A stretch of DNA of 17,601 nucleotides from a virus. Taxonomy: Duplodnaviria; Heunggongvirae; Uroviricota; Caudoviricetes. The translations under genes were made by a program, and so were the position numbers. The notes under the pieces were generated by a model, which had not been told where the DNA came from, made no database searches, and was given only the letters and a program-made list of their open reading frames with translations. The DNA is taken from IMG/VR virus record IMGVR_UViG_2695420739_000021. One strand, given 5' to 3'. Of the stretch, positions 329-15,319 are shown piece by piece; position 1 is the first letter of the stretch; the number at the start of each line of letters is the position of its first letter.

Positions 329-342
329 GGGATTTTTGGTCC

Positions 343-375
343 ACGAGAGTAGTTTAATTGAGTATGTAACTACAT
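343..375. other. Candidate att core region (attL side), with inverted repeat GTAGTT / AACTAC
   Basis: Identity between the two unit starts begins at 342/9051. Inverted repeat 349-354 / 368-373 resembles core-type integrase half-sites. Exact crossover cannot be fixed without attB. Confidence 0.3.
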
Positions 376-410
376 GATTTTAAATAGTATGCTTGATTCA
401 ACTTTTAAAC

Positions 411-434
411 CGTATAACTAAACGTATAACTAAA
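411..434. repeat. Tandem 12-bp direct repeats CGTATAACTAAA x2 (putative integrase arm-type sites, P' arm)
   Basis: Perfect tandem copies at 411-422 and 423-434; same motif occurs four times upstream of int (8858-8912). Confidence 0.45.
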
Positions 435-660
435 ATCATTTGCTGAAAAAGTGTACAATTTAAATGCGAGTTTTCCTGTGGTAAAAGCTCCAACCGTAAC
501 GATGTTCGTTATGGTTGCCTTGATGGTCTGCGTGGTCATTATGACCATTCAGGATTTGAAGGGTGACGCTTCCGACTTCCTCAAATTGAGGTTTCCGAAA
601 ATATCAGCGGGTTAGCGATTAATCTGACCATTAATTAAACTGCGAAAATTTCGTAATTAT

Positions 661-686
661 CCCGATATGGGGATCACCATATCGGG
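661..686 (-). terminator. Hairpin downstream of capsid-like gene (putative operon terminator)
   Basis: Perfect 10-bp inverted repeat CCCGATATGG / CCATATCGGG with 6-nt spacer, just 3' of the gene ending at 703; followed by AU-rich rather than a clean U-tract. Confidence 0.35.
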
Positions 687-702
687 ATTGATGCCGGAAA
701 AA

Positions 703-1629
703 TCAGCTTTTCGCCAGAACGGTGACGGCCTTATCGAGTTTTTGCCATCCGCAATAGGTGATTGCCCTGAACGCTGTAGCGTCATTCTGGAAAAGGCTAA
801 CCGTCCCTGATTCGGTTTTTATTACCGCCTCATCAGTTGGGGTTATAACCGTGGCTTCAACGTTAATAATCAGCTTTTGAGCGTCTATCAGCATCATGCG
901 ATCCGCCTGTTCGCTCACAATTACCGGTATTCTCAAAAGCTCTATCTGCCAGAACTCAGCATCAGTAAGCTGTAAGGCGTTTTCTACGGGCAAGATTAGC
1001 GACGACGTGGCAAGCGTGTTACCGTTCGCTATGTGCTTTTTGAAAAGCTCTATGAAGTTTTCGGCCTCATCAGCACCATTAAGCACGCCCTCAGGGGATA
1101 CGCCCGCCACCTCCTGGTCACTGGAAAGAAATTTTTTATCTATTTCTTTCACCGATTCCGATGTGATCAAGTCTCTGATCGCTGAATTGGTACCAGGGGT
1201 GCTAAATTTGATTAGCTCGTTATTCAGCATCACAATAGCGCCAAGTTTGCACAGTTTTAGCGCACTTTCGTTTACTTCTCCCTCTTTGACAGGGATTTCT
1301 TCGGCTTCTTTAAGCCATTTACTACCCTTGCCTGATATTGACTGCAATTTTGCGCCAAACGGAAGATTCAGCGCGCTGCTGATTAGCTTGCCTGGTACAG
1401 ACTGCGAAAAAATATACTCGCCAAGCTCTCTTACTATCGGCTCTGCCACCAGCGACGGCATATTATCCGTAGTCATTCCGGCAACAATGGATTTTTCAAG
1501 AAATTTCGATACTGCCGGATCATTTTTTTTCGTCATTTCAATTGCGTCTGCATGGCTGAATTTACACGATGTAAGCACGCTGGCGGCGCGAACTGCCGAC
1601 ACGCCTTTCATGTTTTTAGAAATCATCAT
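703..1629 (-). CDS. HK97-fold major capsid protein-like (308 aa, no delta/scaffold domain)
   Basis: ATGATG start with AGGAGG about 8 nt upstream. Segment KLGAIVMLNNELIKF...EVAGVSPEGVLNGA resembles the conserved HK97-family capsid motif. Last gene of the terS operon. Assignment is from memory, not a search. Confidence 0.5.
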   Translation of the reverse strand: MMISKNMKGVSAVRAASVLTSCKFSHADAIEMTKKNDPAVSKFLEKSIVAGMTTDNMPSLVAEPIVRELGEYIFSQSVPGKLISSALNLPFGAKLQSISGKGSKWLKEAEEIPVKEGEVNESALKLCKLGAIVMLNNELIKFSTPGTNSAIRDLITSESVKEIDKKFLSSDQEVAGVSPEGVLNGADEAENFIELFKKHIANGNTLATSSLILPVENALQLTDAEFWQIELLRIPVIVSEQADRMMLIDAQKLIINVEATVITPTDEAVIKTESGTVSLFQNDATAFRAITYCGWQKLDKAVTVLAKS

Positions 1630-1777
1630 CTTCTTCCTCCTGGTAACATGGGGTTAGGGTTTCGTGAAAATATGGCATCAGAACAGCGGCAGCCTGTAAC
1701 CGTATTTCGGTTGGCTGCTGCTTGTCGTTCATGATTTCCGTGAGTACATCAATAGGGTCTGTGATGTATTCGCTCAT
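1616..1777 (-). CDS. Hypothetical small protein (53 aa) with acidic C-terminal tail
   Basis: ATG at 1777, 11 nt after terS stop; MSEYITDPIDVLTEIMNDKQQPTEIRLQAAAVLMPYFHETLTPCYQEEEDDDF; overlaps capsid start by 14 nt. Not in ORF track (under length cutoff). Confidence 0.35.
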   Translation of the reverse strand: MSEYITDPIDVLTEIMNDKQQPTEIRLQAAAVLMPYFHETLTPCYQEEEDDDF

Positions 1778-1788
1778 AGTTCGCTACC

Positions 1789-2277
1789 TCAGTGTTTTAA
1801 GCCAGTTGGTGGCTTAGGGATGGGGAACCGATTTGAGGAGACATTAGCGGCATTGAGTTTTTTAACCTCTTTTTTCCCAATGCTGCCGATCTTGCGGTGG
1901 GTGAACTGGGCCAGCTTAAACGCGGCATCTAAAGCCAGTTTTGGATCTGTGTCCATGTTGTCAATCAGTATCCTGCCCATTGCTTTGATGGGGTCGGGTA
2001 GGCCGTTATCCATCATCTCAATGGTGTTAATTGATGCCCGTTCCGGTGTAACTTTTTCGGTAACTTTCTTTGTAACTTTTTTCGGTTTTGTAACCTGAAA
2101 AGTTACATCAGAAGTTACAGCCTTAAGATACTTTTTCACCTCCGGATCATTGGATAGCTGCCAGCCTTTAACCCTTGCAGTCTTTTCGCTGTATCCCGCA
2201 TGTATCGCGGCTTCCGTTGGATTTGTGCCCTTTGATAACGCATCAGCAAACCGCTTTTTTTTGGTCGTTAATGCCAT
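1789..2277 (-). CDS. terS: Terminase small subunit (N-terminal HTH type)
   Basis: Internal ATG (MALTTKKKRFADALSKGTNPTEAAIHAGYSEKTARVKGWQL...) matches the TerS DNA-binding N-terminus. The track's longer 208-aa start is an unlikely N-terminal extension. Confidence 0.7.
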   Translation of the reverse strand: MALTTKKKRFADALSKGTNPTEAAIHAGYSEKTARVKGWQLSNDPEVKKYLKAVTSDVTFQVTKPKKVTKKVTEKVTPERASINTIEMMDNGLPDPIKAMGRILIDNMDTDPKLALDAAFKLAQFTHRKIGSIGKKEVKKLNAANVSSNRFPIPKPPTGLKH

Positions 2278-2323
2278 GCAAAAACCTCGTTTTGAGGGGG
2301 TGTAACTTTTCGTGTAACTTTTT
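2048..2323. repeat. Cluster of GTAAC(T)TTT repeats inside and just upstream of terS (candidate pac site)
   Basis: Direct copies at about 2048, 2060, 2072, 2090, 2302, 2313 and inverted AGTTAC at about 2101 and 2113. Two copies lie upstream of the terS start codon, so not purely a coding-repeat effect. Confidence 0.35.
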
Positions 2324-2404
2324 TGAAAAGCAAAATTTTCTATGAATGAGACTGGGGGCGGTGTCCAGGGCGATCGACTTTCCGGCCGGAACACTCCCCC
2401 CCTG

Positions 2405-2566
2405 TCATTGCTCACCGAGTAACGAGATCAGGCCTTCAACTTCATCACTCAGCTTGTTTATTCGTGTCTCAAGCTCTGCGATCTTTTCCATCAATGGCGC
2501 TATGGTGTCTCTTGTTTCCTCGCCAATGGCTTTAATGATGCTTGCCTCGCGTTCTGTGATAGCCAT
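2405..2566 (-). CDS. Hypothetical small coiled-coil protein (53 aa)
   Basis: ATG 3 nt after the stop of the preceding 64-aa gene; MAITEREASIIKAIGEETRDTIAPLMEKIAELETRINKLSDEVEGLISLLGEQ. Not in ORF track. Confidence 0.3.
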   Translation of the reverse strand: MAITEREASIIKAIGEETRDTIAPLMEKIAELETRINKLSDEVEGLISLLGEQ

Positions 2567-2569
2567 TGT

Positions 2570-2764
2570 TTACGCCTCACTTGTTGCAATGCCCAGGCGT
2601 TCGCGTAACAGTACGCGCGCAAGATGCCCTATTGTTGGTGTTGCCGCCCTGCCGTAGATACCTGATTCATTCATCCGGCGCACAATATCGAACTGCAACT
2701 TTTTAAGCTCGTTAAGGATTTCATGATCAATCATCACGGTAGCGCTTTGCTTTATCTCTTCCAC
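2570..2764 (-). CDS. Hypothetical small protein (64 aa), first gene of packaging operon; possible DNA-binding
   Basis: GTG start at 2764 with AGGAG 8 nt upstream; sits after an AT-rich promoter-like region and the terminator of the preceding unit. Confidence 0.4.
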   Translation of the reverse strand: MEEIKQSATVMIDHEILNELKKLQFDIVRRMNESGIYGRAATPTIGHLARVLLRERLGIATSEA

Positions 2765-2852
2765 TTTGTTTTCTCCTGATACTTATCATTGCATAACCAG
2801 TATTTTCGATAGATTATCATTAATTAACCATATTTGAAGATATATGAGATCG

Positions 2853-2876
2853 AAAAAAAGCCGGATTGCTCCGGCT
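2853..2876 (-). terminator. Intrinsic terminator after the 81-aa gene
   Basis: Minus-strand hairpin GCCGGAGCAATCCGGC followed by U7 (plus strand: A-run 2853-2859, hairpin 2860-2875). Confidence 0.6.
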
Positions 2877-2894
2877 ATGTGCTCACTTCTTCGG

Positions 2895-3140
2895 TTATTC
2901 TCCAGCGCTTTTAACGTTGATGGTTGTTACCTGTTCCGCTTCGGCAATCTCCCGTTCTGTCAGCGTGGCAAAGTTTGCCGCCGCTGTGGTCATGAATGCG
3001 CTTATCAGTTCGGGATGCTCCTTCGCGTATCCTTCCCCCGCGTGGCGGTCTATCGTTCTGATTGCCACCTTTAAGGAAAGCTCTGTCATGTCTAACGCTT
3101 TATATTTTGGCGCTGTCTTATCTCTGGTTTTTCTGTTCAT
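2895..3140 (-). CDS. Hypothetical protein (81 aa), origin-adjacent
   Basis: ATG at 3140 directly abutting the iteron array; followed by the intrinsic terminator. Confidence 0.35.
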   Translation of the reverse strand: MNRKTRDKTAPKYKALDMTELSLKVAIRTIDRHAGEGYAKEHPELISAFMTTAAANFATLTEREIAEAEQVTTINVKSAGE

Positions 3141-3345
3141 TCCCCACTACTCCCCACTTTTGCTCCCCACTTTTTGAAATTACCCACCGTCTCCCCACCT
3201 CTTTTTTTTGTGATTCTAACGTTATGTTTTTCAATATGTTTTTTACTCCCCACTTTTTTGGGTATATACAGGTGGGAAAGTGGGTAATTATGTTTCAATT
3301 TTGTTAAATTCCCCACTCCCCCCACTTTTACTCCCCACTTTTTAC
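3141..3345. repeat. Replication origin candidate: iterons (C)TCCCCACTTTT plus AT-rich segment
   Basis: At least 8 direct copies (3141, 3150, 3163, 3191, 3245, 3310, 3319, 3331), 2 inverted (GTGGGAAAGTGGGTA at 3272-3286), and AT-rich stretch 3201-3245. Directly 3' of the rep gene. Confidence 0.6.
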
Positions 3346-4675
3346 AGCGGGCGCACGTCATCACCGTCAATAACGATTACGCCATCATTTTCCAGCTTGT
3401 ACAGCCAGCGCCGGAAGTGCTTCATCTCATACCCCAGCTTTTTCATATCGTCGCGGAGAAGGGCGATAGTGCACGCCTCCCCGTGTGCTGTTCGTGTTCT
3501 GATGCACTGCCATAGCGCGGCGTGATTCTCCGTCTTGTTCCCTGCCTCCTCGATGCGCTCCAGTTCAACGGGAGGGCGCGGCTTATCCACCACCACCAGC
3601 GACGTGATTAACTCCCCGTCAGCGTCGGTAAAAAGCTCCACCACGCGTAAGTCATATGCTGCTTCTTTGAGTTCCTCCGCGTCCTTCATTTTGGTACATG
3701 AGATAACCAGCGCTTCGCTGCCTGCGTCCTCCCTGCGTATCCGGTATTCGGCGTCCAGTGATGCACGAAATGCACTGGAACCACGCGCCCCCTTTGTTTC
3801 ATCCTTGCCGGAATGGTGAACCACCAGCACCGTTGCCCCTGTGCGCCGTTTCAGTTCGTCACACCCACGGATAAACGCCCCCATATCACGGGAATCATTT
3901 TCATCATTGCCGCCAAAGCAGCGCGCCAGCGTATCCAGAATAATCATTCGAACCGGTTTACCCGTTTCCCGTTCCACCTGACGGGCAGCGATAACCATTT
4001 CACGTGCACAACCTCCCAGGCTTTTACACGACGCGGAACACCTATACCGCCTTCACCAACCACATAGAGAACCGCACCATGTGCAACCCTGCGGCCTCCC
4101 CACTGGCGACCAGTGGCAACATGGCACGCCCACGATCCGGCAAGGAATGATTTATAGGACCCGCTAGCCCCGTATATGCTGCATAGCGATACCGCCGGAA
4201 TAATCCCCTTAACCACGTAATCCAGTTGCGTGTCGTATCCGGTAGATCCAACGCTCATCGGTAGCGTGGTTTTTCGCTGGTGGTTTTTTTCTTCCGCCGG
4301 CTCTTTCCCGCGCACCCGTTCCAGGTATTCGCGCCAGTTCTCCCGCATATGGCTGTGCATCCCTTCGGGGTAATAATTCGCATCAGTTACACCCGCCGCC
4401 GCCAGCTTGTGCGCAATGGCATTAATATTTGATGGCCTGATGTGGCCTGCCTTGTACAGCCGGACACAATAGCGCCCCTCGTCGATGATTCTCAGGTCTG
4501 CCAGTTCATCCAGTTGATCATCAGCCAGCACAACGGGAGGCACATTATCGCCAGCCAGTCGCCCGTCCTGTTCCTGCCACTGTTTCGCATGTGCCCAGGC
4601 ATCACTACCCGCAAAAATAATGACTTCGGTCATCTTGTCGTAAGGCTGTTTTTTTAAGTTCGGTGCGCTTTTCAT
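3342..4675 (-). pseudogene. Disrupted replication protein (AAA_25/RepA-like), split by 67-bp deletion
   Basis: Copy 2 has one 466-aa ORF; copy 1 is split into 3944..4675 (N-terminal, Walker A GASGSYKSF, frameshifted tail) and 3342..3998 (C-terminal, Walker B MIILD). Deletion at about 3999-4001. Confidence 0.7.
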
Positions 4676-4971
4676 TTCTTGCCCCTGAATCCGTTAATCA
4701 TGGTTTTCAGCTTCTGGATGTTTGCCCGTGCCCTGGCGTTGCTGGTGGGCACGTTATGCGGCGCGGTCTGTACCAGAGAAAAATCACGCCGGAACTGATA
4801 AACAGGCATCACGCAATCATATTCGTAACCTTCACGGCGGTAAGTTACGCACCGTCCCGCCACGCCCTTAATCATTACCGTGCCGCCGTACTGGTCGCGG
4901 TAAATATCACCGCGCGTAAATTTAGGGTGAGTGTTGCCACTGGCAGTTAAGCCAGAATATTTAAGTTTCAT
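4672..4971 (-). CDS. Hypothetical protein (99 aa), translationally coupled to rep
   Basis: ATG at 4971 with GGAG upstream; stop overlaps rep start (ATGA). Confidence 0.4.
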   Translation of the reverse strand: MKLKYSGLTASGNTHPKFTRGDIYRDQYGGTVMIKGVAGRCVTYRREGYEYDCVMPVYQFRRDFSLVQTAPHNVPTSNARARANIQKLKTMINGFRGKK

Positions 4972-4976
4972 TATTT

Positions 4977-5210
4977 TTATTCTCCGGTGTGCTGTTCGTT
5001 ATATCTGTCGTGCAATGTCTCTATTTCCTGCAACTCATTTATTACAGGCTCAAGAAGCGTTATTAATGCCGTGACAATTCTTGATTTTTGTTTGTCGCGT
5101 TCATTGTCGCCAAGTGTTTCAAGCCATATGCGCAATATTTCGTACATACCTTCAGCGTAAGCAAGGGCACTAAATGCGCGGTCTATTGTTTCGTGGTAAA
5201 TATCACGCAT
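4977..5210 (-). CDS. Small acidic helical protein (77 aa)
   Basis: ATG at 5210; net negative charge; overlaps stop of the upstream gene (TAATATG). Confidence 0.4.
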   Translation of the reverse strand: MRDIYHETIDRAFSALAYAEGMYEILRIWLETLGDNERDKQKSRIVTALITLLEPVINELQEIETLHDRYNEQHTGE

Positions 5211-5211
5211 A

Positions 5212-5433
5212 TTAATCCCCGTCCGTTGTTTTTCTTAAAACAGCTTCTGTCACGAAATCAGCATAGTTAGCGGCAATATCAAGAATATTTAGCCCTGTAT
5301 CTCTGTGCTCATCAGTGCAAAGAAAGAAAAAAGCCACCCGCATAATTTCAGATATTGACGAAAGCGCATCAGCCGCATCATCAGGAACGCCGGAAAATTC
5401 TTGTTTCAGGGAATTAAAACGATCATCACGCAT
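5212..5433 (-). CDS. Small acidic protein (73 aa), paralog of the next gene (PDDAADAL motif)
   Basis: Start MRDDRF with a G8 run as ribosome-binding site; overlaps the upstream gene (ATGCGTGA). Confidence 0.4.
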   Translation of the reverse strand: MRDDRFNSLKQEFSGVPDDAADALSSISEIMRVAFFFLCTDEHRDTGLNILDIAANYADFVTEAVLRKTTDGD

Positions 5434-5647
5434 AACCCCCCCCATTTTCACAATCAGCAACAAGAATATTTTTAGCGTCATTCAGCGACCGCGTTGCGAT
5501 GTATCGGATACATTCCAGGGCGAACTGTGTCCGGTCTTTCTGTTCTTCTCCCTGCGCAAGCTCTGCAGTGCATTCAATATCGATAAGCGCGTGCATCAGC
5601 GTAGTGAGCGCGTCGGCTGCTGCGTCCGGTGTGGTTTTATTGCACAT
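5426..5647 (-). CDS. Small acidic protein (73 aa), paralog (TPDAAADAL motif)
   Basis: Start MCNKTT with AGGAGG 7 nt upstream; overlaps the Icd-like stop. Confidence 0.4.
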   Translation of the reverse strand: MCNKTTPDAAADALTTLMHALIDIECTAELAQGEEQKDRTQFALECIRYIATRSLNDAKNILVADCENGGGYA

Positions 5648-6197
5648 GGCACACCTCCTGACGAATACGGGCGGCGAATACAGCAACACAACCGGACGGG
5701 CAACGGCTACGCGCTTCGCGTTCCGTCCAGGCGGTTACGTGGATGATTTGATGTTCTGACGCGCCAAAGATGATAAAGCGCCAGAGAAAGGCGGTTTGAG
5801 AATGTACAAGGGTAGGGATAGTAGCCATGTTGGCAGCCTCCTCAGTGTGGTTAAGATAACCGCCACCGGAAACGCCAATTTCGCTGGTGGCGGACTGTAC
5901 AGGGTTGGCGTAACCGGACACTGAAGAAACCGGCGCGGATTGCTCCGCCCCCGTACAGCCCACCATTGATAAGGTGTGACTATGCGGCACAAAAAAACAC
6001 GCGGGGCGCGTGTTATGCGCTTCAGTTTTGCCCAGGACGCCAATCCCGGCACCCGTTTTATGAGGTGCGCGGGAATCATAGCTATTTTCGACACTGGCGA
6101 TCAACTGGTTTTTTTCTCCGATATTCAGGGCCAGAAAACGCCACACAAAGGCCGTTTGTGTGTGTACAAGGTGTGGTATATGATTTACGGCAACCAT
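5637..6197 (-). CDS. Icd-like (Ash-family) protein, tandem two-domain reading frame; internal start at 5828 gives a 63-aa Icd-like product
   Basis: Two paralogous segments share HLVH(T/S)QTAF(V/L)WRF; distal one ends ...TEREARSR...VFAARIRQEV, like P4-type Icd-like proteins. No stop between them. GAGGAGG precedes the internal ATG at 5828; GGAG precedes ATG at 6197. Confidence 0.45.
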   Translation of the reverse strand: MVAVNHIPHLVHTQTAFVWRFLALNIGEKNQLIASVENSYDSRAPHKTGAGIGVLGKTEAHNTRPACFFVPHSHTLSMVGCTGAEQSAPVSSVSGYANPVQSATSEIGVSGGGYLNHTEEAANMATIPTLVHSQTAFLWRFIIFGASEHQIIHVTAWTEREARSRCPSGCVAVFAARIRQEVCHVQ

Positions 6198-6285
6198 AAC
6201 GGCTCCTAGTTTACGTTGTTGGTTAGACGCCCCGTATGTGTTCCCAGCACTGCGGGGCGTTGATTTTTGTGTAATGGCAAGTACA

Positions 6286-6329
6286 ATGGTAATTACCATG
6301 TAGGTATAGTAATGAAGGGTAATTACCAT
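6286..6329. promoter_or_regulatory. Paired palindromic operators in divergent promoter region
   Basis: Perfect 14-bp palindrome ATGGTAATTACCAT (6286-6299) and 12-bp GGTAATTACCAT (6318-6329), centres 30 bp apart; second overlaps the RHH start codon. Possible TATAGT -10 at 6305-6310. Confidence 0.5.
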
Positions 6330-6501
6330 GTCAACACCATTAGAAAAACGTTCGCCTCCATACCAAATGCGATTACCGGAAGACTTCAGAGCGCAGCTAG
6401 AAGAAGCAGCTAAGGCCGATGGCGACACATCTTTAGCCACTTGGATTAAACGCGTTCTCCGCAAAGAATTACAGCAACGCGGCATAGAACCCAAAGGATA
6501 A
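6328..6501 (+). CDS. Ribbon-helix-helix (Arc/CopG-like) DNA-binding protein, 57 aa; putative element repressor
   Basis: MSTPLEKRSPPYQMRLPEDFRAQLEEAAKADGDTSLATWIKRVLRKELQQRGIEPKG fits the Arc-type RHH pattern. Divergent from the Icd/rep operon. Not in ORF track. Confidence 0.5.
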   Translation: MSTPLEKRSPPYQMRLPEDFRAQLEEAAKADGDTSLATWIKRVLRKELQQRGIEPKG

Positions 6502-6543
6502 AAACTATCAGCGCCGTGGTGTGAGGTATTACGGCGCATTGCT

Positions 6544-6732
6544 ATGCAGGACAACACAATGACCGATAAAGAATTGACCAAAACATTATCACCGGCACGG
6601 AAAAGACGGCGCAGAAAGATAGAGCATGAATCAGAAAGATTCGCGCCATGTGCTTTTGCCCTTGAGCAATTCCTTAAAGAGTACAGGGAAAAGCGCTCAT
6701 TGCAGGTATGGCAACGAACTGAACCAGACTGA
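6544..6732 (+). CDS. Hypothetical basic small protein (62 aa)
   Basis: ORF between RHH gene and the plus-strand terminator; weak ribosome-binding site; arginine-rich stretch KRRRRK. Confidence 0.25.
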   Translation: MQDNTMTDKELTKTLSPARKRRRRKIEHESERFAPCAFALEQFLKEYREKRSLQVWQRTEPD

Positions 6733-6827
6733 TTGCATTGCCCACCAGCCTGATAGCGGCTATCATCCCCGTGCTTATGTTTGGGATCACATACACATAA
6801 GGCGCAGCGGGTTAATTGTTCAGAAAG

Positions 6828-6854
6828 GCGGCTCCATATCGGGGCCGCTTTTTT
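6828..6854 (+). terminator. Intrinsic terminator at convergence of RHH unit and alpA
   Basis: Stem GCGGCTCC / GGGGCCGC (one G-U pair), 5-nt loop, then T6. Confidence 0.55.
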
Positions 6855-6880
6855 CGTGTTTGTCATATCTGTGATACCCG

Positions 6881-7087
6881 TTAAGCAGCCGTTCCGCGTG
6901 CTTCCTCTTCGCGTTCTTTCTGCCAGGACAACACATCATCCTCATACCATCCGCGACGGCGTAAACCAACGCGAAAACCCTGCGGAAATTCTCCGGCGTT
7001 GATCATGCTTTGCAGCGTGCTGTCTGCCTTGATGTGGATAATTTTTTTTACTTCCTGGCGAAAGATAATTTTTCTGATTGCTTCCAT
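6881..7087 (-). CDS. alpA: AlpA-family regulator / excisionase-like protein (68 aa)
   Basis: ...STLQSMINAGEFPQGFRVGLRRRGWYEDDVLSWQ matches the AlpA-family HTH pattern. Confidence 0.75.
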   Translation of the reverse strand: MEAIRKIIFRQEVKKIIHIKADSTLQSMINAGEFPQGFRVGLRRRGWYEDDVLSWQKEREEEARGTAA

Positions 7088-7103
7088 CGTGATTTACCTT
7101 GTG

Positions 7104-7191
7104 AATCCGGTGTATTCCGGTGACAAATACGGTAAATCATCGGATATGGGTAAAAACAGTTCCCACCGTTTTTAAACGGTATACACCGTTT
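7104..7191. promoter_or_regulatory. alpA upstream control region: TCCGGTG repeats and ACCGTTT/AAACGGT inverted repeats
   Basis: ATCCGGTG (7104-7111) and TTCCGGTGA (7114-7122) spaced 10 bp; inverted repeats at 7165-7180 and 7174-7191. The TCCGGTG motif recurs next to the att core. Confidence 0.35.
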
Positions 7192-7220
7192 TTTATATTG
7201 ATGATTTGAAATGGAATTAT

Positions 7221-7243
7221 AAAAAAAGCGGCATTTCTGCCGC
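7221..7243 (-). terminator. Intrinsic terminator of the int / 83-aa unit
   Basis: Minus-strand hairpin GCGGCAGAAATGCCGC followed by U7. Confidence 0.6.
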
Positions 7244-7254
7244 TTCCAGGATTG

Positions 7255-7506
7255 TTACCGCCATTTTTTGGGCCTGCCTCCGATCTTCATAGATGCCGGA
7301 CGTACGACCTTATCAATACTTACCGCCAGATTTCTGGAAGCGCCACGGGATACCAGAAAATCTACTACCTGTTTTTTTGATGGGGCCGTCGTTCTGTCCT
7401 CCGGATCGTAGGTTGACCAAAATTCATGCTGAACCATCAGGGCCAGTTGCAGCCCGTCGCAATTGCATCTGATATTTTTTTGCATCTTAACGGTTTCATG
7501 TTTCAC
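7255..7506 (-). CDS. Hypothetical int-linked small protein (83 aa)
   Basis: ORF downstream of int on the same strand, before the terminator; GTG start at 7506 (alternative ATG at M8); TATAAT motif about 28 nt upstream. Confidence 0.4.
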   Translation of the reverse strand: MKHETVKMQKNIRCNCDGLQLALMVQHEFWSTYDPEDRTTAPSKKQVVDFLVSRGASRNLAVSIDKVVRPASMKIGGRPKKWR

Positions 7507-7583
7507 GGCCTTGTCGTTAAATTTGATGCAATTATACGACGGTTTTACATGGTTTTCGTAGTTTTTACTGGTTTTCTGTACAG

Positions 7584-8825
7584 CTACACGGCTCGGATAC
7601 CCCTTTTACCACTGGCGAGGGTTACGCCCGTCGCCGCAGCCTCGACAAATTCGCCCCACCAGCGCATCAGCACGATGCGTTTTTCTATGTAGTTGCTCCG
7701 GTTGTATGCCCGTCTAACTTCGTTGGTGTCGACGTGGGCAAGTGCCGCCTCTATTACGTCCGGCTCGAATCCTTCCTCGTTCGCTGCTGTGCTGAATATG
7801 GCGCGTAATCCATGAGACACCAGCACGCCAGCGAATCCCATACGCCGCAATGCTGCGTTAGCTGTCTGGCTGTTCATCGGCTGCTGTGGGTCTTTCAGAC
7901 TTGGGAAAACGTAATTGCGGTGGTGGCTGATTGGTTTCATGGCCTCCAGCACCGCCATAGCCTGACCGGAAAGCGGGATAACGTGATCCCTGCGCATCTT
8001 CATGCGTCCGGCAGGTATCGTCCATTGCTTCGCGTCCAGGTTGATTTCATCCCACCGCGTTGATGACGCTTCGGCGGGACGGGTTACGGTCAGTAACTGC
8101 CATTCAATCAGTAATCTGGTCTGCCGTTCTGTTGCCGATACTGATAAAGCCTGCATAAGCTCGGGCAGCTGTTCGGGGCGGATTGTTGGCATATGTTTTT
8201 TTACAGGTGAGGGAAACGCCTTACGCACATTCATAGCCGGATTGGCATCAATCAGCCCACTGTTGGCGGCGTAATCCATTACCTCATTAACGCGCTGTAA
8301 AACCCGCTTGAGTGTTTCCAGGTTGCCGCGCTCCTTGATGGGGGTAAGCACTTCAACGAACCTTCGGGCGGTGAGGGTATCTATTGGCGTGTTGCCGATG
8401 AACGGGAATACATATTTATCCAGCGAACGCCAGATGTCTTTAATCGTGTTGGGGGCCAGATTCTGGCTGATTTTCACCTGGTACCATGCCGCCGCCACAT
8501 TTTCGAACGTGTTCCCTTGTCTTCGGGCCTCTGTCTCTCTTTTTTGCCTCTCGTGGTCCTGCGGGTCAGTTCCGGCACTGATTAACGTCCTGTACTCGCT
8601 ACGGCGTTTTCTGGCATCAGCCAGGGAAACATCTTCAAGCGATCCAAAACTCAGCAATATTCTTTTTTTGTCCGATGGTCGGTAGTAGGAAAATCTCCAG
8701 AGTTTTGATCCAGACGGTTTGACCAGGAGAAAAAGCCCTCCGCCGTCCTGCAGGGTGTACTCCTTTTGCGCTGGTCTGGCTGCTTTGATCTGCACTGTGG
8801 TTAATGGGTGTGTTTTTCTCGCCAT
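7584..8825 (-). CDS. int: Tyrosine integrase, P4-type (413 aa)
   Basis: N-terminus MARKTHPLTTVQIKAARPAQKEYTLQDGGGLFLLVKPSGSKLWRFSYY is typical of P4-like integrases; ATG at 8825 preferred over the upstream GTG. Confidence 0.85.
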   Translation of the reverse strand: MARKTHPLTTVQIKAARPAQKEYTLQDGGGLFLLVKPSGSKLWRFSYYRPSDKKRILLSFGSLEDVSLADARKRRSEYRTLISAGTDPQDHERQKRETEARRQGNTFENVAAAWYQVKISQNLAPNTIKDIWRSLDKYVFPFIGNTPIDTLTARRFVEVLTPIKERGNLETLKRVLQRVNEVMDYAANSGLIDANPAMNVRKAFPSPVKKHMPTIRPEQLPELMQALSVSATERQTRLLIEWQLLTVTRPAEASSTRWDEINLDAKQWTIPAGRMKMRRDHVIPLSGQAMAVLEAMKPISHHRNYVFPSLKDPQQPMNSQTANAALRRMGFAGVLVSHGLRAIFSTAANEEGFEPDVIEAALAHVDTNEVRRAYNRSNYIEKRIVLMRWWGEFVEAAATGVTLASGKRGIRAV

Positions 8826-8857
8826 ATGTCTATGATTCCACACGAAAAAACAGGGTT

Positions 8858-8912
8858 TTAGTTATACGGCTTTAGTTATACGCCAGCCCGTATAACTAAA
8901 CGTATAACTAAA
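8858..8912. repeat. Four copies of CGTATAACTAAA (two inverted, two direct): putative arm-type sites, P arm
   Basis: TTTAGTTATACG at about 8858 and 8871; CGTATAACTAAA at about 8890 and 8901. Same motif as 411-434. Confidence 0.45.
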
Positions 8913-8923
8913 AAATCCGGCTG

Positions 8924-9037
8924 ATAGCTTATAAATCCGGTGATGTTCGGTGACTAAAAAACATAAAAAAACCCGCCAATCAAGTGATTAGCGGGTTATC
9001 CCTGTCTTATCCGGTGCTTTCCGGTGATATCCGGTGG
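8924..9037. repeat. TCCGGTG direct repeats, three phased at 10 bp, next to att core (candidate directionality-factor sites)
   Basis: Copies at about 8924 (variant), 8935, 8946 (variant), 9009, 9019, 9029; the last three are exactly 10 bp apart. Confidence 0.4.
8962..8997 (-). terminator. Intrinsic terminator between the copy-2 capsid operon and int
   Basis: Minus-strand stem AACCCGC / GCGGGTT with 14-nt loop followed by U7. Confidence 0.5.
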
Positions 9038-9119
9038 GCGATTTGGTCGGCACGAGAGTAGTTTAATTGAGTATGTAACTACATGATTTTAAATAGTATG
9101 CTTGATTCAACTTTTAAAC

Positions 9120-9143
9120 CGTATAACTAAACGTATAACTAAA
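9120..9143. repeat. Tandem CGTATAACTAAA x2 (P' arm of junction attP)
   Basis: Copy-2 equivalent of 411-434; with 8858-9037 and the core near 9051 this forms a full attP-like site. Confidence 0.45.
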
Positions 9144-9411
9144 ATCATTTGCTGAAAAAGTGTACAATTTAAATGCGAGTTTTCCTGTGGTAAAAGCTCC
9201 AACCGTAACGATGTTCGTTATGGTTGCCTTGATGGTCTGCGTGGTCATTATGACCATTCAGGATTTGAAGGGTGACGCTTCCGACTTCCTCAAATTGAGG
9301 TTTCCGAAAATATCAGCGGGTTAGCGATTAATCTGACCATTAATTAAACTGCGAAAATTTCGTAATTATCCCGATATGGGGATCACCATATCGGGATTGA
9401 TGCCGGAAAAA

Positions 9412-10338
9412 TCAGCTTTTCGCCAGAACGGTGACGGCCTTATCGAGTTTTTGCCATCCGCAATAGGTGATTGCCCTGAACGCTGTAGCGTCATTCTGGA
9501 AAAGGCTAACCGTCCCTGATTCGGTTTTTATTACCGCCTCATCAGTTGGGGTTATAACCGTGGCTTCAACGTTAATAATCAGCTTTTGAGCGTCTATCAG
9601 CATCATGCGATCCGCCTGTTCGCTCACAATTACCGGTATTCTCAAAAGCTCTATCTGCCAGAACTCAGCATCAGTAAGCTGTAAGGCGTTTTCTACGGGC
9701 AAGATTAGCGACGACGTGGCAAGCGTGTTACCGTTCGCTATGTGCTTTTTGAAAAGCTCTATGAAGTTTTCGGCCTCATCAGCACCATTAAGCACGCCCT
9801 CAGGGGATACGCCCGCCACCTCCTGGTCACTGGAAAGAAATTTTTTATCTATTTCTTTCACCGATTCCGATGTGATCAAGTCTCTGATCGCTGAATTGGT
9901 ACCAGGGGTGCTAAATTTGATTAGCTCGTTATTCAGCATCACAATAGCGCCAAGTTTGCACAGTTTTAGCGCACTTTCGTTTACTTCTCCCTCTTTGACA
10001 GGGATTTCTTCGGCTTCTTTAAGCCATTTACTACCCTTGCCTGATATTGACTGCAATTTTGCGCCAAACGGAAGATTCAGCGCGCTGCTGATTAGCTTGC
10101 CTGGTACAGACTGCGAAAAAATATACTCGCCAAGCTCTCTTACTATCGGCTCTGCCACCAGCGACGGCATATTATCCGTAGTCATTCCGGCAACAATGGA
10201 TTTTTCAAGAAATTTCGATACTGCCGGATCATTTTTTTTCGTCATTTCAATTGCGTCTGCATGGCTGAATTTACACGATGTAAGCACGCTGGCGGCGCGA
10301 ACTGCCGACACGCCTTTCATGTTTTTAGAAATCATCAT
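9412..10338 (-). CDS. HK97-fold major capsid protein-like (copy 2)
   Basis: Identical translation to 703..1629. Confidence 0.5.
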   Translation of the reverse strand: MMISKNMKGVSAVRAASVLTSCKFSHADAIEMTKKNDPAVSKFLEKSIVAGMTTDNMPSLVAEPIVRELGEYIFSQSVPGKLISSALNLPFGAKLQSISGKGSKWLKEAEEIPVKEGEVNESALKLCKLGAIVMLNNELIKFSTPGTNSAIRDLITSESVKEIDKKFLSSDQEVAGVSPEGVLNGADEAENFIELFKKHIANGNTLATSSLILPVENALQLTDAEFWQIELLRIPVIVSEQADRMMLIDAQKLIINVEATVITPTDEAVIKTESGTVSLFQNDATAFRAITYCGWQKLDKAVTVLAKS

Positions 10339-10486
10339 CTTCTTCCTCCTGGTAACATGGGGTTAGGGTTTCGTGAAAATATGGCATCAGAACAGCGGCA
10401 GCCTGTAACCGTATTTCGGTTGGCTGCTGCTTGTCGTTCATGATTTCCGTGAGTACATCAATAGGGTCTGTGATGTATTCGCTCAT
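10325..10486 (-). CDS. Hypothetical small protein with acidic tail (copy 2)
   Basis: Copy of 1616..1777 at +8709. Confidence 0.35.
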   Translation of the reverse strand: MSEYITDPIDVLTEIMNDKQQPTEIRLQAAAVLMPYFHETLTPCYQEEEDDDF

Positions 10487-10497
10487 AGTTCGCTACC

Positions 10498-10986
10498 TCA
10501 GTGTTTTAAGCCAGTTGGTGGCTTAGGGATGGGGAACCGATTTGAGGAGACATTAGCGGCATTGAGTTTTTTAACCTCTTTTTTCCCAATGCTGCCGATC
10601 TTGCGGTGGGTGAACTGGGCCAGCTTAAACGCGGCATCTAAAGCCAGTTTTGGATCTGTGTCCATGTTGTCAATCAGTATCCTGCCCATTGCTTTGATGG
10701 GGTCGGGTAGGCCGTTATCCATCATCTCAATGGTGTTAATTGATGCCCGTTCCGGTGTAACTTTTTCGGTAACTTTCTTTGTAACTTTTTTCGGTTTTGT
10801 AACCTGAAAAGTTACATCAGAAGTTACAGCCTTAAGATACTTTTTCACCTCCGGATCATTGGATAGCTGCCAGCCTTTAACCCTTGCAGTCTTTTCGCTG
10901 TATCCCGCATGTATCGCGGCTTCCGTTGGATTTGTGCCCTTTGATAACGCATCAGCAAACCGCTTTTTTTTGGTCGTTAATGCCAT
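10498..10986 (-). CDS. terS: Terminase small subunit (copy 2)
   Basis: Identical to 1789..2277; ATG confirmed at 10984-10986 (plus-strand CAT). Confidence 0.7.
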   Translation of the reverse strand: MALTTKKKRFADALSKGTNPTEAAIHAGYSEKTARVKGWQLSNDPEVKKYLKAVTSDVTFQVTKPKKVTKKVTEKVTPERASINTIEMMDNGLPDPIKAMGRILIDNMDTDPKLALDAAFKLAQFTHRKIGSIGKKEVKKLNAANVSSNRFPIPKPPTGLKH

Positions 10987-11113
10987 GCAAAAACCTCGTT
11001 TTGAGGGGGTGTAACTTTTCGTGTAACTTTTTTGAAAAGCAAAATTTTCTATGAATGAGACTGGGGGCGGTGTCCAGGGCGATCGACTTTCCGGCCGGAA
11101 CACTCCCCCCCTG

Positions 11114-11275
11114 TCATTGCTCACCGAGTAACGAGATCAGGCCTTCAACTTCATCACTCAGCTTGTTTATTCGTGTCTCAAGCTCTGCGATCTTTTCCAT
11201 CAATGGCGCTATGGTGTCTCTTGTTTCCTCGCCAATGGCTTTAATGATGCTTGCCTCGCGTTCTGTGATAGCCAT
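11114..11275 (-). CDS. Hypothetical coiled-coil protein, 53 aa (copy 2)
   Basis: Copy of 2405..2566. Confidence 0.3.
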   Translation of the reverse strand: MAITEREASIIKAIGEETRDTIAPLMEKIAELETRINKLSDEVEGLISLLGEQ

Positions 11276-11278
11276 TGT

Positions 11279-11473
11279 TTACGCCTCACTTGTTGCAATG
11301 CCCAGGCGTTCGCGTAACAGTACGCGCGCAAGATGCCCTATTGTTGGTGTTGCCGCCCTGCCGTAGATACCTGATTCATTCATCCGGCGCACAATATCGA
11401 ACTGCAACTTTTTAAGCTCGTTAAGGATTTCATGATCAATCATCACGGTAGCGCTTTGCTTTATCTCTTCCAC
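11279..11473 (-). CDS. Hypothetical small protein, 64 aa (copy 2)
   Basis: Identical translation to 2570..2764. Confidence 0.4.
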   Translation of the reverse strand: MEEIKQSATVMIDHEILNELKKLQFDIVRRMNESGIYGRAATPTIGHLARVLLRERLGIATSEA

Positions 11474-11603
11474 TTTGTTTTCTCCTGATACTTATCATTG
11501 CATAACCAGTATTTTCGATAGATTATCATTAATTAACCATATTTGAAGATATATGAGATCGAAAAAAAGCCGGATTGCTCCGGCTATGTGCTCACTTCTT
11601 CGG

Positions 11604-11849
11604 TTATTCTCCAGCGCTTTTAACGTTGATGGTTGTTACCTGTTCCGCTTCGGCAATCTCCCGTTCTGTCAGCGTGGCAAAGTTTGCCGCCGCTGTGGTC
11701 ATGAATGCGCTTATCAGTTCGGGATGCTCCTTCGCGTATCCTTCCCCCGCGTGGCGGTCTATCGTTCTGATTGCCACCTTTAAGGAAAGCTCTGTCATGT
11801 CTAACGCTTTATATTTTGGCGCTGTCTTATCTCTGGTTTTTCTGTTCAT
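11604..11849 (-). CDS. Hypothetical origin-adjacent protein, 81 aa (copy 2)
   Basis: Identical translation to 2895..3140. Confidence 0.35.
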   Translation of the reverse strand: MNRKTRDKTAPKYKALDMTELSLKVAIRTIDRHAGEGYAKEHPELISAFMTTAAANFATLTEREIAEAEQVTTINVKSAGE

Positions 11850-12054
11850 TCCCCACTACTCCCCACTTTTGCTCCCCACTTTTTGAAATTACCCACCGTC
11901 TCCCCACCTCTTTTTTTTGTGATTCTAACGTTATGTTTTTCAATATGTTTTTTACTCCCCACTTTTTTGGGTATATACAGGTGGGAAAGTGGGTAATTAT
12001 GTTTCAATTTTGTTAAATTCCCCACTCCCCCCACTTTTACTCCCCACTTTTTAC
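11850..12054. repeat. Replication origin iterons (copy 2)
   Basis: Same TCCCCACTTTT iteron array as 3141..3345. Confidence 0.6.
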
Positions 12055-13451
12055 AGCGGGCGCACGTCATCACCGTCAATAACGATTACGCCATCATTTT
12101 CCAGCTTGTACAGCCAGCGCCGGAAGTGCTTCATCTCATACCCCAGCTTTTTCATATCGTCGCGGAGAAGGGCGATAGTGCACGCCTCCCCGTGTGCTGT
12201 TCGTGTTCTGATGCACTGCCATAGCGCGGCGTGATTCTCCGTCTTGTTCCCTGCCTCCTCGATGCGCTCCAGTTCAACGGGAGGGCGCGGCTTATCCACC
12301 ACCACCAGCGACGTGATTAACTCCCCGTCAGCGTCGGTAAAAAGCTCCACCACGCGTAAGTCATATGCTGCTTCTTTGAGTTCCTCCGCGTCCTTCATTT
12401 TGGTACATGAGATAACCAGCGCTTCGCTGCCTGCGTCCTCCCTGCGTATCCGGTATTCGGCGTCCAGTGATGCACGAAATGCACTGGAACCACGCGCCCC
12501 CTTTGTTTCATCCTTGCCGGAATGGTGAACCACCAGCACCGTTGCCCCTGTGCGCCGTTTCAGTTCGTCACACCCACGGATAAACGCCCCCATATCACGG
12601 GAATCATTTTCATCATTGCCGCCAAAGCAGCGCGCCAGCGTATCCAGAATAATCATTCGAACCGGTTTACCCGTTTCCCGTTCCACCTGACGGGCAGCGA
12701 TAACCATTTCCTCAACATCAAGCGGGGCAGCCGGAAAGATGGGACGGTTTACCAGATACAGATTTTTCACCTGCTCACCGTGCACAACCTCCCAGGCTTT
12801 TACACGACGCGGAACGCCGATACCGCCTTCACCAACCACATAGAGAACAGCGCCATGCGCCACCCTGCGGCCTCCCCACTGGCGGCCCGTGGAAACGTGA
12901 CACGCCCACGAACCCGCAAGGAACGATTTATATGAACCGCTCGCCCCGTATATGCTGCACAGCGATACCGCCGGAATAATCCCCTTAACCACGTAATCAA
13001 GTTGTGTGTCGTATCCGGCAGATCCCACGCTCATTGGTAGCGTGGTTTTTCGCTGGTGGTGTTTTTCTTCCCCTGGCTTTTTCCCCCGCTCCCGTTCCAG
13101 ATATTCGCGCCAGTTCTCCCGCTTCTGGCTGTGCATCCCTTCGGGGTAATAATTCGCATCAGTTACACCCGCCGCCGCCAGCTTGTGCGCAATGGCATTA
13201 ATATTTGATGGCCTGATGTGGCCTGCCTTGTACAGCCGGACACAATAGCGCCCCTCGTCGATGATTCTCAGGTCTGCCAGTTCATCCAGTTGATCATCAG
13301 CCAGCACAACGGGAGGCACATTATCGCCAGCCAGTCGCCCGTCCTGTTCCTGCCACTGTTTCGCATGTGCCCAGGCATCACTACCCGCAAAAATAATGAC
13401 TTCGGTCATCTTGTCGTAAGGCTGTTTTTTTAAGTTCGGTGCGCTTTTCAT
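12051..13451 (-). CDS. Replication protein, AAA_25/RepA-DnaB-like ATPase with C-terminal winged-helix region (466 aa, intact)
   Basis: Single ORF with Walker A (GASGSYKSF), Walker B (VRMIILDTLARCFGG), VLVVHHSGKDETKGARGSSA motif and basic C-terminal region; ATG at 13451; origin immediately 3'. Confidence 0.75.
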   Translation of the reverse strand: MKSAPNLKKQPYDKMTEVIIFAGSDAWAHAKQWQEQDGRLAGDNVPPVVLADDQLDELADLRIIDEGRYCVRLYKAGHIRPSNINAIAHKLAAAGVTDANYYPEGMHSQKRENWREYLERERGKKPGEEKHHQRKTTLPMSVGSAGYDTQLDYVVKGIIPAVSLCSIYGASGSYKSFLAGSWACHVSTGRQWGGRRVAHGAVLYVVGEGGIGVPRRVKAWEVVHGEQVKNLYLVNRPIFPAAPLDVEEMVIAARQVERETGKPVRMIILDTLARCFGGNDENDSRDMGAFIRGCDELKRRTGATVLVVHHSGKDETKGARGSSAFRASLDAEYRIRREDAGSEALVISCTKMKDAEELKEAAYDLRVVELFTDADGELITSLVVVDKPRPPVELERIEEAGNKTENHAALWQCIRTRTAHGEACTIALLRDDMKKLGYEMKHFRRWLYKLENDGVIVIDGDDVRPL

Positions 13452-13747
13452 TTCTTGCCCCTGAATCCGTTAAACATGGTTTTCAGCTTCTGGATGTTTG
13501 CCCGTGCCCTGGCGTTGCTGGTGGGCACGTTATGCGGCGCGGTCTGTACCAGAGAAAAATCACGCCGGAACTGATAAACAGGCATCACGCAATCATATTC
13601 GTAACCTTCACGGCGGTAAGTTACGCACCGTCCCGCCACGCCCTTAATCATTACCGTGCCGCCGTACTGGTCGCGGTAAATATCACCGCGCGTAAATTTA
13701 GGGTGAGTGTTGCCACTGGCAGTTAAGCCAGAATATTTAAGTTTCAT
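13448..13747 (-). CDS. Hypothetical protein, 99 aa, coupled to rep (copy 2)
   Basis: Copy of 4672..4971 with one substitution (I to F). Confidence 0.4.
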   Translation of the reverse strand: MKLKYSGLTASGNTHPKFTRGDIYRDQYGGTVMIKGVAGRCVTYRREGYEYDCVMPVYQFRRDFSLVQTAPHNVPTSNARARANIQKLKTMFNGFRGKK

Positions 13748-13752
13748 TATTT

Positions 13753-13986
13753 TTATTCTCCGGTGTGCTGTTCGTTATATCTGTCGTGCAATGTCTCTAT
13801 TTCCTGCAACTCATTTATTACAGGCTCAAGAAGCGTTATTAATGCCGTGACAATTCTTGATTTTTGTTTGTCGCGTTCATTGTCGCCAAGTGTTTCAAGC
13901 CATATGCGCAATATTTCGTACATACCTTCAGCGTAAGCAAGGGCACTAAATGCGCGGTCTATTGTTTCGTGGTAAATATCACGCAT
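13753..13986 (-). CDS. Small acidic helical protein, 77 aa (copy 2)
   Basis: Identical translation to 4977..5210. Confidence 0.4.
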   Translation of the reverse strand: MRDIYHETIDRAFSALAYAEGMYEILRIWLETLGDNERDKQKSRIVTALITLLEPVINELQEIETLHDRYNEQHTGE

Positions 13987-13987
13987 A

Positions 13988-14209
13988 TTAATCCCCGTCC
14001 GTTGTTTTTCTTAAAACAGCTTCTGTCACGAAATCAGCATAGTTAGCGGCAATATCAAGAATATTTAGCCCTGTATCTCTGTGCTCATCAGTGCAAAGAA
14101 AGAAAAAAGCCACCCGCATAATTTCAGATATTGACGAAAGCGCATCAGCCGCATCATCAGGAACGCCGGAAAATTCTTGTTTCAGGGAATTAAAACGATC
14201 ATCACGCAT
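13988..14209 (-). CDS. Small acidic protein, 73 aa (copy 2)
   Basis: Copy of 5212..5433. Confidence 0.4.
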   Translation of the reverse strand: MRDDRFNSLKQEFSGVPDDAADALSSISEIMRVAFFFLCTDEHRDTGLNILDIAANYADFVTEAVLRKTTDGD

Positions 14210-14423
14210 AACCCCCCCCATTTTCACAATCAGCAACAAGAATATTTTTAGCGTCATTCAGCGACCGCGTTGCGATGTATCGGATACATTCCAGGGCGAA
14301 CTGTGTCCGGTCTTTCTGTTCTTCTCCCTGCGCAAGCTCTGCAGTGCATTCAATATCGATAAGCGCGTGCATCAGCGTAGTGAGCGCGTCGGCTGCTGCG
14401 TCCGGTGTGGTTTTATTGCACAT
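14202..14423 (-). CDS. Small acidic protein, 73 aa (copy 2)
   Basis: Copy of 5426..5647. Confidence 0.4.
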   Translation of the reverse strand: MCNKTTPDAAADALTTLMHALIDIECTAELAQGEEQKDRTQFALECIRYIATRSLNDAKNILVADCENGGGYA

Positions 14424-14973
14424 GGCACACCTCCTGACGAATACGGGCGGCGAATACAGCAACACAACCGGACGGGCAACGGCTACGCGCTTCGCGTTCC
14501 GTCCAGGCGGTTACGTGGATGATTTGATGTTCTGACGCGCCAAAGATGATAAAGCGCCAGAGAAAGGCGGTTTGAGAATGTACAAGGGTAGGGATAGTAG
14601 CCATGTTGGCAGCCTCCTCAGTGTGGTTAAGATAACCGCCACCGGAAACGCCAATTTCGCTGGTGGCGGACTGTACAGGGTTGGCGTAACCGGACACTGA
14701 AGAAACCGGCGCGGATTGCTCCGCCCCCGTACAGCCCACCATTGATAAGGTGTGACTATGCGGCACAAAAAAACACGCGGGGCGCGTGTTATGCGCTTCA
14801 GTTTTGCCCAGGACGCCAATCCCGGCACCCGTTTTATGAGGTGCGCGGGAATCATAGCTATTTTCGACACTGGCGATCAACTGGTTTTTTTCTCCGATAT
14901 TCAGGGCCAGAAAACGCCACACAAAGGCCGTTTGTGTGTGTACAAGGTGTGGTATATGATTTACGGCAACCAT
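14413..14973 (-). CDS. Icd-like (Ash-family) tandem two-domain protein (copy 2)
   Basis: Copy of 5637..6197; internal start at 14604. Confidence 0.45.
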   Translation of the reverse strand: MVAVNHIPHLVHTQTAFVWRFLALNIGEKNQLIASVENSYDSRAPHKTGAGIGVLGKTEAHNTRPACFFVPHSHTLSMVGCTGAEQSAPVSSVSGYANPVQSATSEIGVSGGGYLNHTEEAANMATIPTLVHSQTAFLWRFIIFGASEHQIIHVTAWTEREARSRCPSGCVAVFAARIRQEVCHVQ

Positions 14974-15061
14974 AACGGCTCCTAGTTTACGTTGTTGGTT
15001 AGACGCCCCGTATGTGTTCCCAGCACTGCGGGGCGTTGATTTTTGTGTAATGGCAAGTACA

Positions 15062-15105
15062 ATGGTAATTACCATGTAGGTATAGTAATGAAGGGTAATT
15101 ACCAT
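15062..15105. promoter_or_regulatory. Paired palindromic operators (copy 2)
   Basis: Copy of 6286..6329. Confidence 0.5.
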
Positions 15106-15277
15106 GTCAACACCATTAGAAAAACGTTCGCCTCCATACCAAATGCGATTACCGGAAGACTTCAGAGCGCAGCTAGAAGAAGCAGCTAAGGCCGATGGCG
15201 ACACATCTTTAGCCACTTGGATTAAACGCGTTCTCCGCAAAGAATTACAGCAACGCGGCATAGAACCCAAAGGATAA
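15104..15277 (+). CDS. Ribbon-helix-helix DNA-binding protein (copy 2)
   Basis: Copy of 6328..6501; ATG confirmed at 15104. Confidence 0.5.
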   Translation: MSTPLEKRSPPYQMRLPEDFRAQLEEAAKADGDTSLATWIKRVLRKELQQRGIEPKG

Positions 15278-15319
15278 AAACTATCAGCGCCGTGGTGTGA
15301 GGTATTACGGCGCATTGCT

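Follow-up and report, generated by a model that had tools for sequence, protein, structure and literature searches.

The DNA between positions 3141 and 3345, together with its twin at 11850-12054, is very probably the Rep-bound vegetative replication origin of the phage-inducible chromosomal island (PICI) EcCI11368.1, and we infer that this origin fires here. The array of short repeats that makes up this region varies among related islands in step with a single residue of the replication protein encoded next to it, Rep residue 442.

The analyzed window (the whole stretch of DNA, 17,601 nucleotides or 17.6 kb) opens with a short left flank (1-334), and the rest is taken up by two copies, in tandem, of an island of ~8.7 kb, in which every gene lies on the minus strand:

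335-9040: island copy 1
9041-17601 (window end): island copy 2, cut within the integrase gene

The island begins with the integrase gene, a gene for an AlpA-like 68-aa regulator, Ash and Icd-like genes, small open reading frames (ORFs), a DUF4222 gene, and rep. After rep comes a gap filled with repeats, and then an 81-aa gene, a 64-aa gene, and the genes for a small terminase subunit and a capsid-like protein. The element is EcCI11368.1, a PICI already catalogued in Table S1 of Fillol-Salom et al. 2018 (PMC6092414), and it conforms to this class, whose members are recognized by an integrase, an alpA-type regulator, unidirectional genes, a length of ∼8 to 12 kb, and an att site of their own; the integrase, the AlpA-like 68-aa protein, and the placement of all genes on one strand were confirmed here. 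A single copy resides at tRNA-Pro/yejM in E. coli O26:H11 11368 (99.9% identical there and 100% in other strains), and the island sequence is carried by 165 complete E. coli genomes.

At the junction between the two copies (8844-9060), TTTGGTCGGCACGAGAG is followed directly by TAGTTTAATT, that is, the tRNA-Pro-side att arm is joined to the left end of the island in the manner of an attP site. At the left end at 335, the core differs slightly (TGGTCCACGAGAG). Among 5,426 complete E. coli genomes, none contained this junction as a contiguous sequence, and no tRNA gene was found in the 17.6-kb window. Since a 67-nt deletion and 34 substitutions distinguish the two copies, and since the junction is attP-like, we rejected the possibility that the two copies are an assembly artefact.

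Two further parts of the island deserve mention. The capsid-like and small terminase subunit genes lie at 703-1629 and 1789-2415 (copy 2, 9412-10338 and 10498-11124; all on the minus strand). The 308-aa capsid-like protein aligns with HK97-type major capsid profiles over their C-terminal part only, and in an 8.7-kb PICI the two products possibly serve capsid-size or packaging-redirection functions. A 409-aa ORF, called mechanically at 5637-6866 and 14413-15642 (both on the minus strand), carries an Ash domain in its C-terminal half; the same stretch is annotated in O26:H11 11368 as separate partial Ash and Icd-like pseudogenes, and the ORF may represent a fusion or a decayed region.

The rep stop codon is separated from the neighbouring gene by 201 bp (3141-3341), all of which are taken up by the repeat array. 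The parts and surroundings of this gap are as follows:

3141-3345: copy 1 putative origin, the whole repeat-filled gap from the rep stop to the next gene
3141-3199, plus strand: rep-distal iteron cluster of five direct repeats, whose cores start at 3143, 3153, 3166, 3183, and 3194
3200-3246: AT-rich spacer of 47 bp, presumed DNA-unwinding element
3247-3343, plus strand: rep-proximal iteron cluster, with a direct repeat at 3249, an inverted pair at 3272 and 3280 (GGTGGGAAAGTGGG), and direct repeats at 3312, 3321, and 3334
11850-12054: copy 2 putative origin, identical array
2895-3140 (copy 2, 11604-11849), minus strand: 81-aa gene after the array, PHROG 1231, unknown function

The original prediction had counted at least eight direct and two inverted copies of a longer repeat. 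This count was borne out for the CCCAC core, which occurs in nine direct copies (eight of them reading CCCCAC) and two inverted ones, but not for the full 11-mer, TCCCCACTTTT, of which each array holds four to five (four exact copies and one with a single mismatch per island copy, and none elsewhere in the window). The true repeat unit is shorter than the 11-mer, at ∼5 to 7 nt, and is spaced at 9 to 17 nt. There are eleven CCCAC cores in 205 nt where the remainder of the window predicts 0.33 (Poisson P of ∼1e-13), and the 10 matches to the 11-mer in the window compare with 0.47 expected, a number that none of 200 shuffles reached.

Two sets of short iterons thus surround an AT-rich region, with five repeats on one side and six on the other. 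The spacer, at 47 bp and 79% AT, agrees with the segment of ∼45 bp anticipated earlier, and it is not the AT-richest sequence nearby, with 25% GC at 2790-2849 versus a lowest value of 30% in the array region. The inverted pair is found on the rep-proximal side only, where, with the spacer in between, it faces the five distal repeats. Along the rep strand one reads ...CTG TAA AAAGTGGGGA, and the last 11-mer has one base in common with the stop codon (3342-3344), the overlap that had been foreseen; the array sets in with the final base of this codon, directly 3' of the initiator gene. At the far end, the first repeat directly adjoins the ATG (3140) of the 81-aa gene, and its complement, GGGGAG, resembles a ribosome-binding site. 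Neither a DnaA box nor an IHF consensus (each with at most one mismatch) nor a GATC site was found in 3100-3400.

The rep gene differs between the two island copies, and the positions relevant to what follows are these:

12051-13451, minus strand: intact rep of copy 2, 466 aa
3944-4675, minus strand: 5' fragment of copy 1 rep, frameshifted after residue 224 and carrying a patch of 33 substitutions at 4002-4349
3342-3998, minus strand: 3' fragment of copy 1 rep, an ORF from internal Met249, identical to Rep residues 249-466 and including the winged-helix domain
12054-12269, minus strand: coding region of the winged-helix domain, Rep residues 395-466
12126-12128, minus strand: His442 codon CAC (copy 1 equivalent, 3417-3419)

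As originally proposed, the array is intact in both copies, 3141-3345 being identical base for base to 11850-12054, and rep is intact in copy 2 only; in copy 1 a deletion of 67 nt at 4001/4002 disrupts it by shifting the reading frame. A change at 4698 is the sole difference outside rep, all others falling inside this gene (4001-4349 versus 12711-13125). The deletion directly adjoins the 33 substitutions, which lie within 350 bp and are mostly spaced in multiples of three, so that the patch looks like a gene conversion from another rep allele with the deletion at its edge. Since the arrays are identical, the Rep protein of copy 2 could in principle fire either origin, and it is reasonable to suppose that it would act in trans on both. 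More speculatively, the 3' rep fragment of copy 1, if expressed, might compete for the iterons.

Rep consists of an N-terminal domain (residues 1-125), a RepA/AAA_25 RecA-fold helicase core (∼147-390), and a predicted C-terminal winged helix (∼405-466). AAA_25 is its only Pfam match (E = 2.6e-43, residues 147-315), and the domain contains both the Walker A and the Walker B motif of that family (GASGSYKS and LDTLAR), which are invariant in 45 homologues. The best sequence match in the PDB is RSF1010 RepA (1g8y; E = 0.013 over the ATPase core), and the full-length protein family corresponds to PHROG 2850, annotated as "unknown function." We found no SF3/D5-type helicase core, which in the Pri-Rep/SaPI Rep family often comes with a fused primase. 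Rep is thus a RepA/AAA_25 (RecA-fold) helicase with a predicted winged helix and not a primase/SF3 Pri-Rep.

The full-length AF2 model had a mean pLDDT of 68, with the C-terminal 60 residues confident, and a Foldseek search with it gave no match at E ≤ 1e-3, T7 gp4, RadA, and Rad51 being weak neighbours of the core. Because this search was uninformative, the C-terminal domain had to be modeled separately. The AF2 model of residues 395-466 (mean pLDDT, 85.7) shows a helix-helix-helix-strand-strand order, and its top Foldseek matches are all winged-helix domains, namely those of DtxR/IdeR, the IclR-type PcaR, Fur, LexA, and MCM (WH), with TM scores of 0.6 to 0.69, probabilities of 0.96 to 0.99, and E values that are weak (≥0.05) because the domain is small (72 residues). 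In this model, residue 442 lies directly before helix 3 (443-452), the usual recognition helix. At the other end of the protein, residues 1-125 (13077-13451, minus strand) also match a portion of a PHROG annotated as phage "DNA primase." In E. coli, more than one kind of replication protein is encoded after the same DUF4222 gene (several were seen), and the N-terminal domain of Rep may be a common adaptor domain.

Related loci were collected from one-genome-per-species Enterobacterales (80 loci), from IMG/VR contigs (another 80), and from five E. coli variants. In nearly all of the ∼160 loci with enough downstream sequence, the ∼200 nt after the rep stop contain 4 to 13 CxCAC(TT) repeats. We mapped the layout in 126 distinct regions with at least four repeats. 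The first repeat most often lies ∼6 nt after the rep stop, the repeats span ∼180 to 190 nt, and the largest gap between them is in most regions ∼50 to 66 nt (median, 60) with an AT content of ∼70 to 78%. The pattern of repeat orientation is kept in the closest relatives, and the motif itself varies by lineage (CCCCAC, CTCAC, GCCGCAC, or CCCCCAC). Moreover, the array remains with rep where the downstream genes differ (SSB/PerC versus terminase/capsid genes). No clear repeats after rep were detected in five homologues from other genera (L022, L036, L075, L078, and L080); the C-terminus is cut short or altered in some of them, several of the loci look truncated or degraded, and they may be decayed elements or represent another arrangement of the origin.

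We then compared the last 75 residues of Rep with the repeats in 88 distinct C-terminus/repeat combinations. Residue 442 predicts the base 5' of CAC without a single exception among the 88: His goes with C (22 combinations), Asn with T (31), Ser with G (7), and Lys with C (28). The mutual information of this residue, 1.284 bits, equals the full label entropy, and the next-best column reaches 0.97. In a narrower set of 86 E. coli-like loci (42 with CCCAC and 44 with CTCAC), only residue 442 carried the full information (0.985 of 0.985 bits), and the maxima elsewhere were 0.35 bits for other C-terminal columns, 0.15 for the helicase core, 0.22 for the Rep N-terminus, 0.26 for the DUF4222 protein, and 0.585 for the 81-aa protein. 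The best columns of the 81-aa protein are residues 3-5, and we attribute its comparatively high value to the fact that their codons adjoin the first repeat. As other candidate binders of the repeats, the DUF4222 protein, the 81-aa protein, the Rep N-terminus, and the helicase core were rejected, since they hold little information on the repeat class.

On a tree of the C-terminal domain, the His and Asn alleles are interleaved, with ∼7 switches between them, and the domains of L120 (His) and L128 (Asn) are otherwise alike except at a single position. The aligned origins are homologous position by position, with flanking bases common to both types, and all repeats, including the inverted pair, read CCCAC in the His type and CTCAC in the Asn type, so that ∼10 repeats switch together. 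Codon 442 is only ∼80 nt from the array, and physical linkage contributes to the association. However, codons 443-466 are closer still and yet uninformative, and this, together with the concerted change of ∼10 repeats, means that linkage alone does not explain the pattern. The covariation argues strongly that Rep binds the repeats. In protein-DNA recognition generally, Asn is paired with A:T and His or Lys with G:C base pairs, and the pairings seen at residue 442 would fit this chemistry. The His-type and Asn-type origins also have non-iteron blocks in common, GTATATACAGGTG.GAAAGTG.G around the inverted pair (3262-3290) and TTTTGTTAAAT (3299-3310), which may be further protein-binding or unwinding elements.

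The layout of the array is the one described for other PICIs. Fillol-Salom et al. (PMC6092414) give the PICI origin as two sets of iterons around an AT-rich region 3' of rep, common to all PICIs of that study, and showed for EcCICFT073 that plasmid maintenance is lost when either the ori region or rep is deleted. EcCICFT073 has the same order of genes, with int, an alpA-like gene, an Icd-like gene, DUF4222, rep, the origin gap, a conserved gene of ∼83 aa, and packaging/interference genes, and its origin is likewise the gap directly 3' of rep with repeat clusters around an AT-rich stretch. The resemblance to phage-inducible islands noted in the original prediction is therefore well founded, the element being a catalogued PICI and the equivalent gap being the EcCICFT073 origin. 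Residues 1-125 of the two Rep proteins are 65% identical (L167:5242-5616), and the product of the gene after the EcCICFT073 origin is 77% identical to that of the 81-aa ORF. In contrast, EcCICFT073 Rep is a 584-aa "DNA primase family" Pri-Rep, compared with the 466-aa RepA/AAA_25 helicase here, the two being unrelated beyond residue 125, and its iterons read CTACC/GGTAG instead of CCCCAC. With conserved flanks and an unrelated middle, the helicase, the C-terminal domain, and the origin form one swapped cassette, of which the 81-aa gene marks the distal edge. On sequence grounds, the locus would work like a PICI/SaPI origin and belongs to the PICI origin class, with a Rep outside the Pri-Rep/SF3 family.

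A similar design is found in staphylococcal islands, where the C-terminal winged helix of the SaPI1, SaPIbov1, and SaPI5 Rep proteins binds iterons of 5 to 6 nt (Qiao et al. 2022, PMC9371898). These elements, too, have six to twelve short iterons directly after rep with an AT-rich centre, and their Rep combines helicase and initiator with a C-terminal winged helix, as predicted here. Unlike EcCI11368.1, they reside in Gram-positive hosts, their motor belongs to the AAA+/SF3 clade rather than to the RecA-fold RepA/DnaB-like AAA_25 type, and each side of their origins carries two or more iterons of opposite orientation, whereas the inverted pair here is confined to the rep side. RSF1010/IncQ RepA has the closest solved structure by sequence and belongs to the same Pfam family, AAA_25. 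In IncQ plasmids, the functions are split among the RepA helicase, the iteron-binding initiator RepC, and the primase RepB', and the iterons are ∼20 bp long; here, in contrast, the helicase and the presumed iteron reader are in one protein and the repeats are ∼5 to 7 nt long. Classical iteron plasmids have iterons of 17 to 22 bp, DnaA boxes, and a Rep without helicase, and they use host DnaB/DnaC. The locus does not conform to this type, having a 5- to 7-nt core, no DnaA box with at most one mismatch, and a Rep with a helicase. It can nevertheless be set beside pPS10, F, R6K, and RK2, in which direct repeats are bound by winged-helix domains beside an AT-rich unwinding element (PMC4980987).

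Besides an origin, the repeats could be Rep-binding operators for the downstream operon (the 81-aa gene, small terminase, and capsid-like gene), with the origin located elsewhere. The array does fill the entire region upstream of the 81-aa gene, with the first repeat at its ATG supplying a Shine-Dalgarno-like sequence in the complement, and the covariation speaks for Rep binding and not for origin firing. However, no sigma-70-like promoter was found in 2800-3500, the array stays with rep when the downstream genes change, the equivalent gap of EcCICFT073 is needed for replication, and an AT-rich spacer between facing repeats is the architecture of an origin. We therefore regard operators in place of an origin as improbable, although a regulatory role may coexist with origin function, the two not being mutually exclusive.

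Even less probable, and indeed very unlikely, is a role of the array in packaging, as pac or cos accessory sites to which the small terminase subunit or a redirecting protein would bind. Small terminase subunits often bind arrays of short repeats, and the small terminase gene lies ∼700 bp downstream, but the repeat class tracks Rep residue 442 and not the downstream genes, and two loci with the same kind of array (L082 and L084) have no small terminase annotated in the ∼1.7 kb downstream. Finally, the strong C- and T-skew of the array region on the plus strand might suggest a chance or low-complexity C/T-rich repeat or a structured RNA, a reading that is effectively refuted by the comparative data, the layout being conserved across genera while the motif changes, with the excess of both the core and the 11-mer also standing against chance. 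For a structured RNA, Rfam matches were at chance level with none near the gathering score, and single-strand folding was not unusual (z = -1.2).

For the origin, the following sequence of events may be envisaged. A helper phage would induce the island, and Rep would be made. The C-terminal winged helix of Rep would then bind the (T)CCCCAC(TT) repeats, with His442, at the start of the recognition helix, reading the C:G pair just 5' of CAC. Since the five distal repeats and the rep-side inverted pair face each other, Rep oligomers could assemble on both flanks of the AT-rich spacer. The 47-bp AT-rich stretch would melt, and the RepA-type RecA-fold core would self-load onto the single strands. 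As the island lacks a primase, host primase and polymerase would complete the replisome. Rep binding, melting, helicase self-loading, host-primase dependence, and use of the copy 1 origin in trans by copy 2 Rep are the inferred steps of this scheme. In the literature searched, we found no replication data for EcCI11368.1 or for any RepA-type PICI Rep.

That an origin lies here was to be expected, since the island is a catalogued PICI and the founding paper (PMC6092414) ascribes this layout to all its PICIs; the origin itself is ordinary in kind. What is new is a PICI lineage with a RepA/AAA_25 helicase plus winged helix in place of a primase/SF3 Pri-Rep, which indicates that the same origin design works with a different motor. 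The cassette of helicase, C-terminal domain, and origin between conserved flanks also explains the mosaic rep alleles, and such a rep-ori cassette is relevant to the engineering of orthogonal PICI-based delivery vectors.

The most interesting outcome is the rule, new and free of exceptions in this sample, by which one residue corresponds to one base. We found no description of it, or of a RepA-type PICI Rep, in the literature searched, which did not extend to the iteron figure of PMC6092414 (Fig. 2a). We lean slightly toward the view that residue 442 of a RepA-type self-loading helicase-initiator sets origin specificity (His or Lys for C, Asn for T, and Ser for G) and that a CAC-to-AAC codon change, together with the concerted change of ∼10 repeats, has repeatedly made orthogonal rep-ori pairs among enterobacterial PICIs, which would spare co-resident or tandem satellites cross-talk. 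On this view, PICIs would also have built the combination of helicase, winged helix, and rep-proximal iterons on a helicase superfamily other than that of SaPIs. The rule bears on how satellite replicons diversify their specificity.
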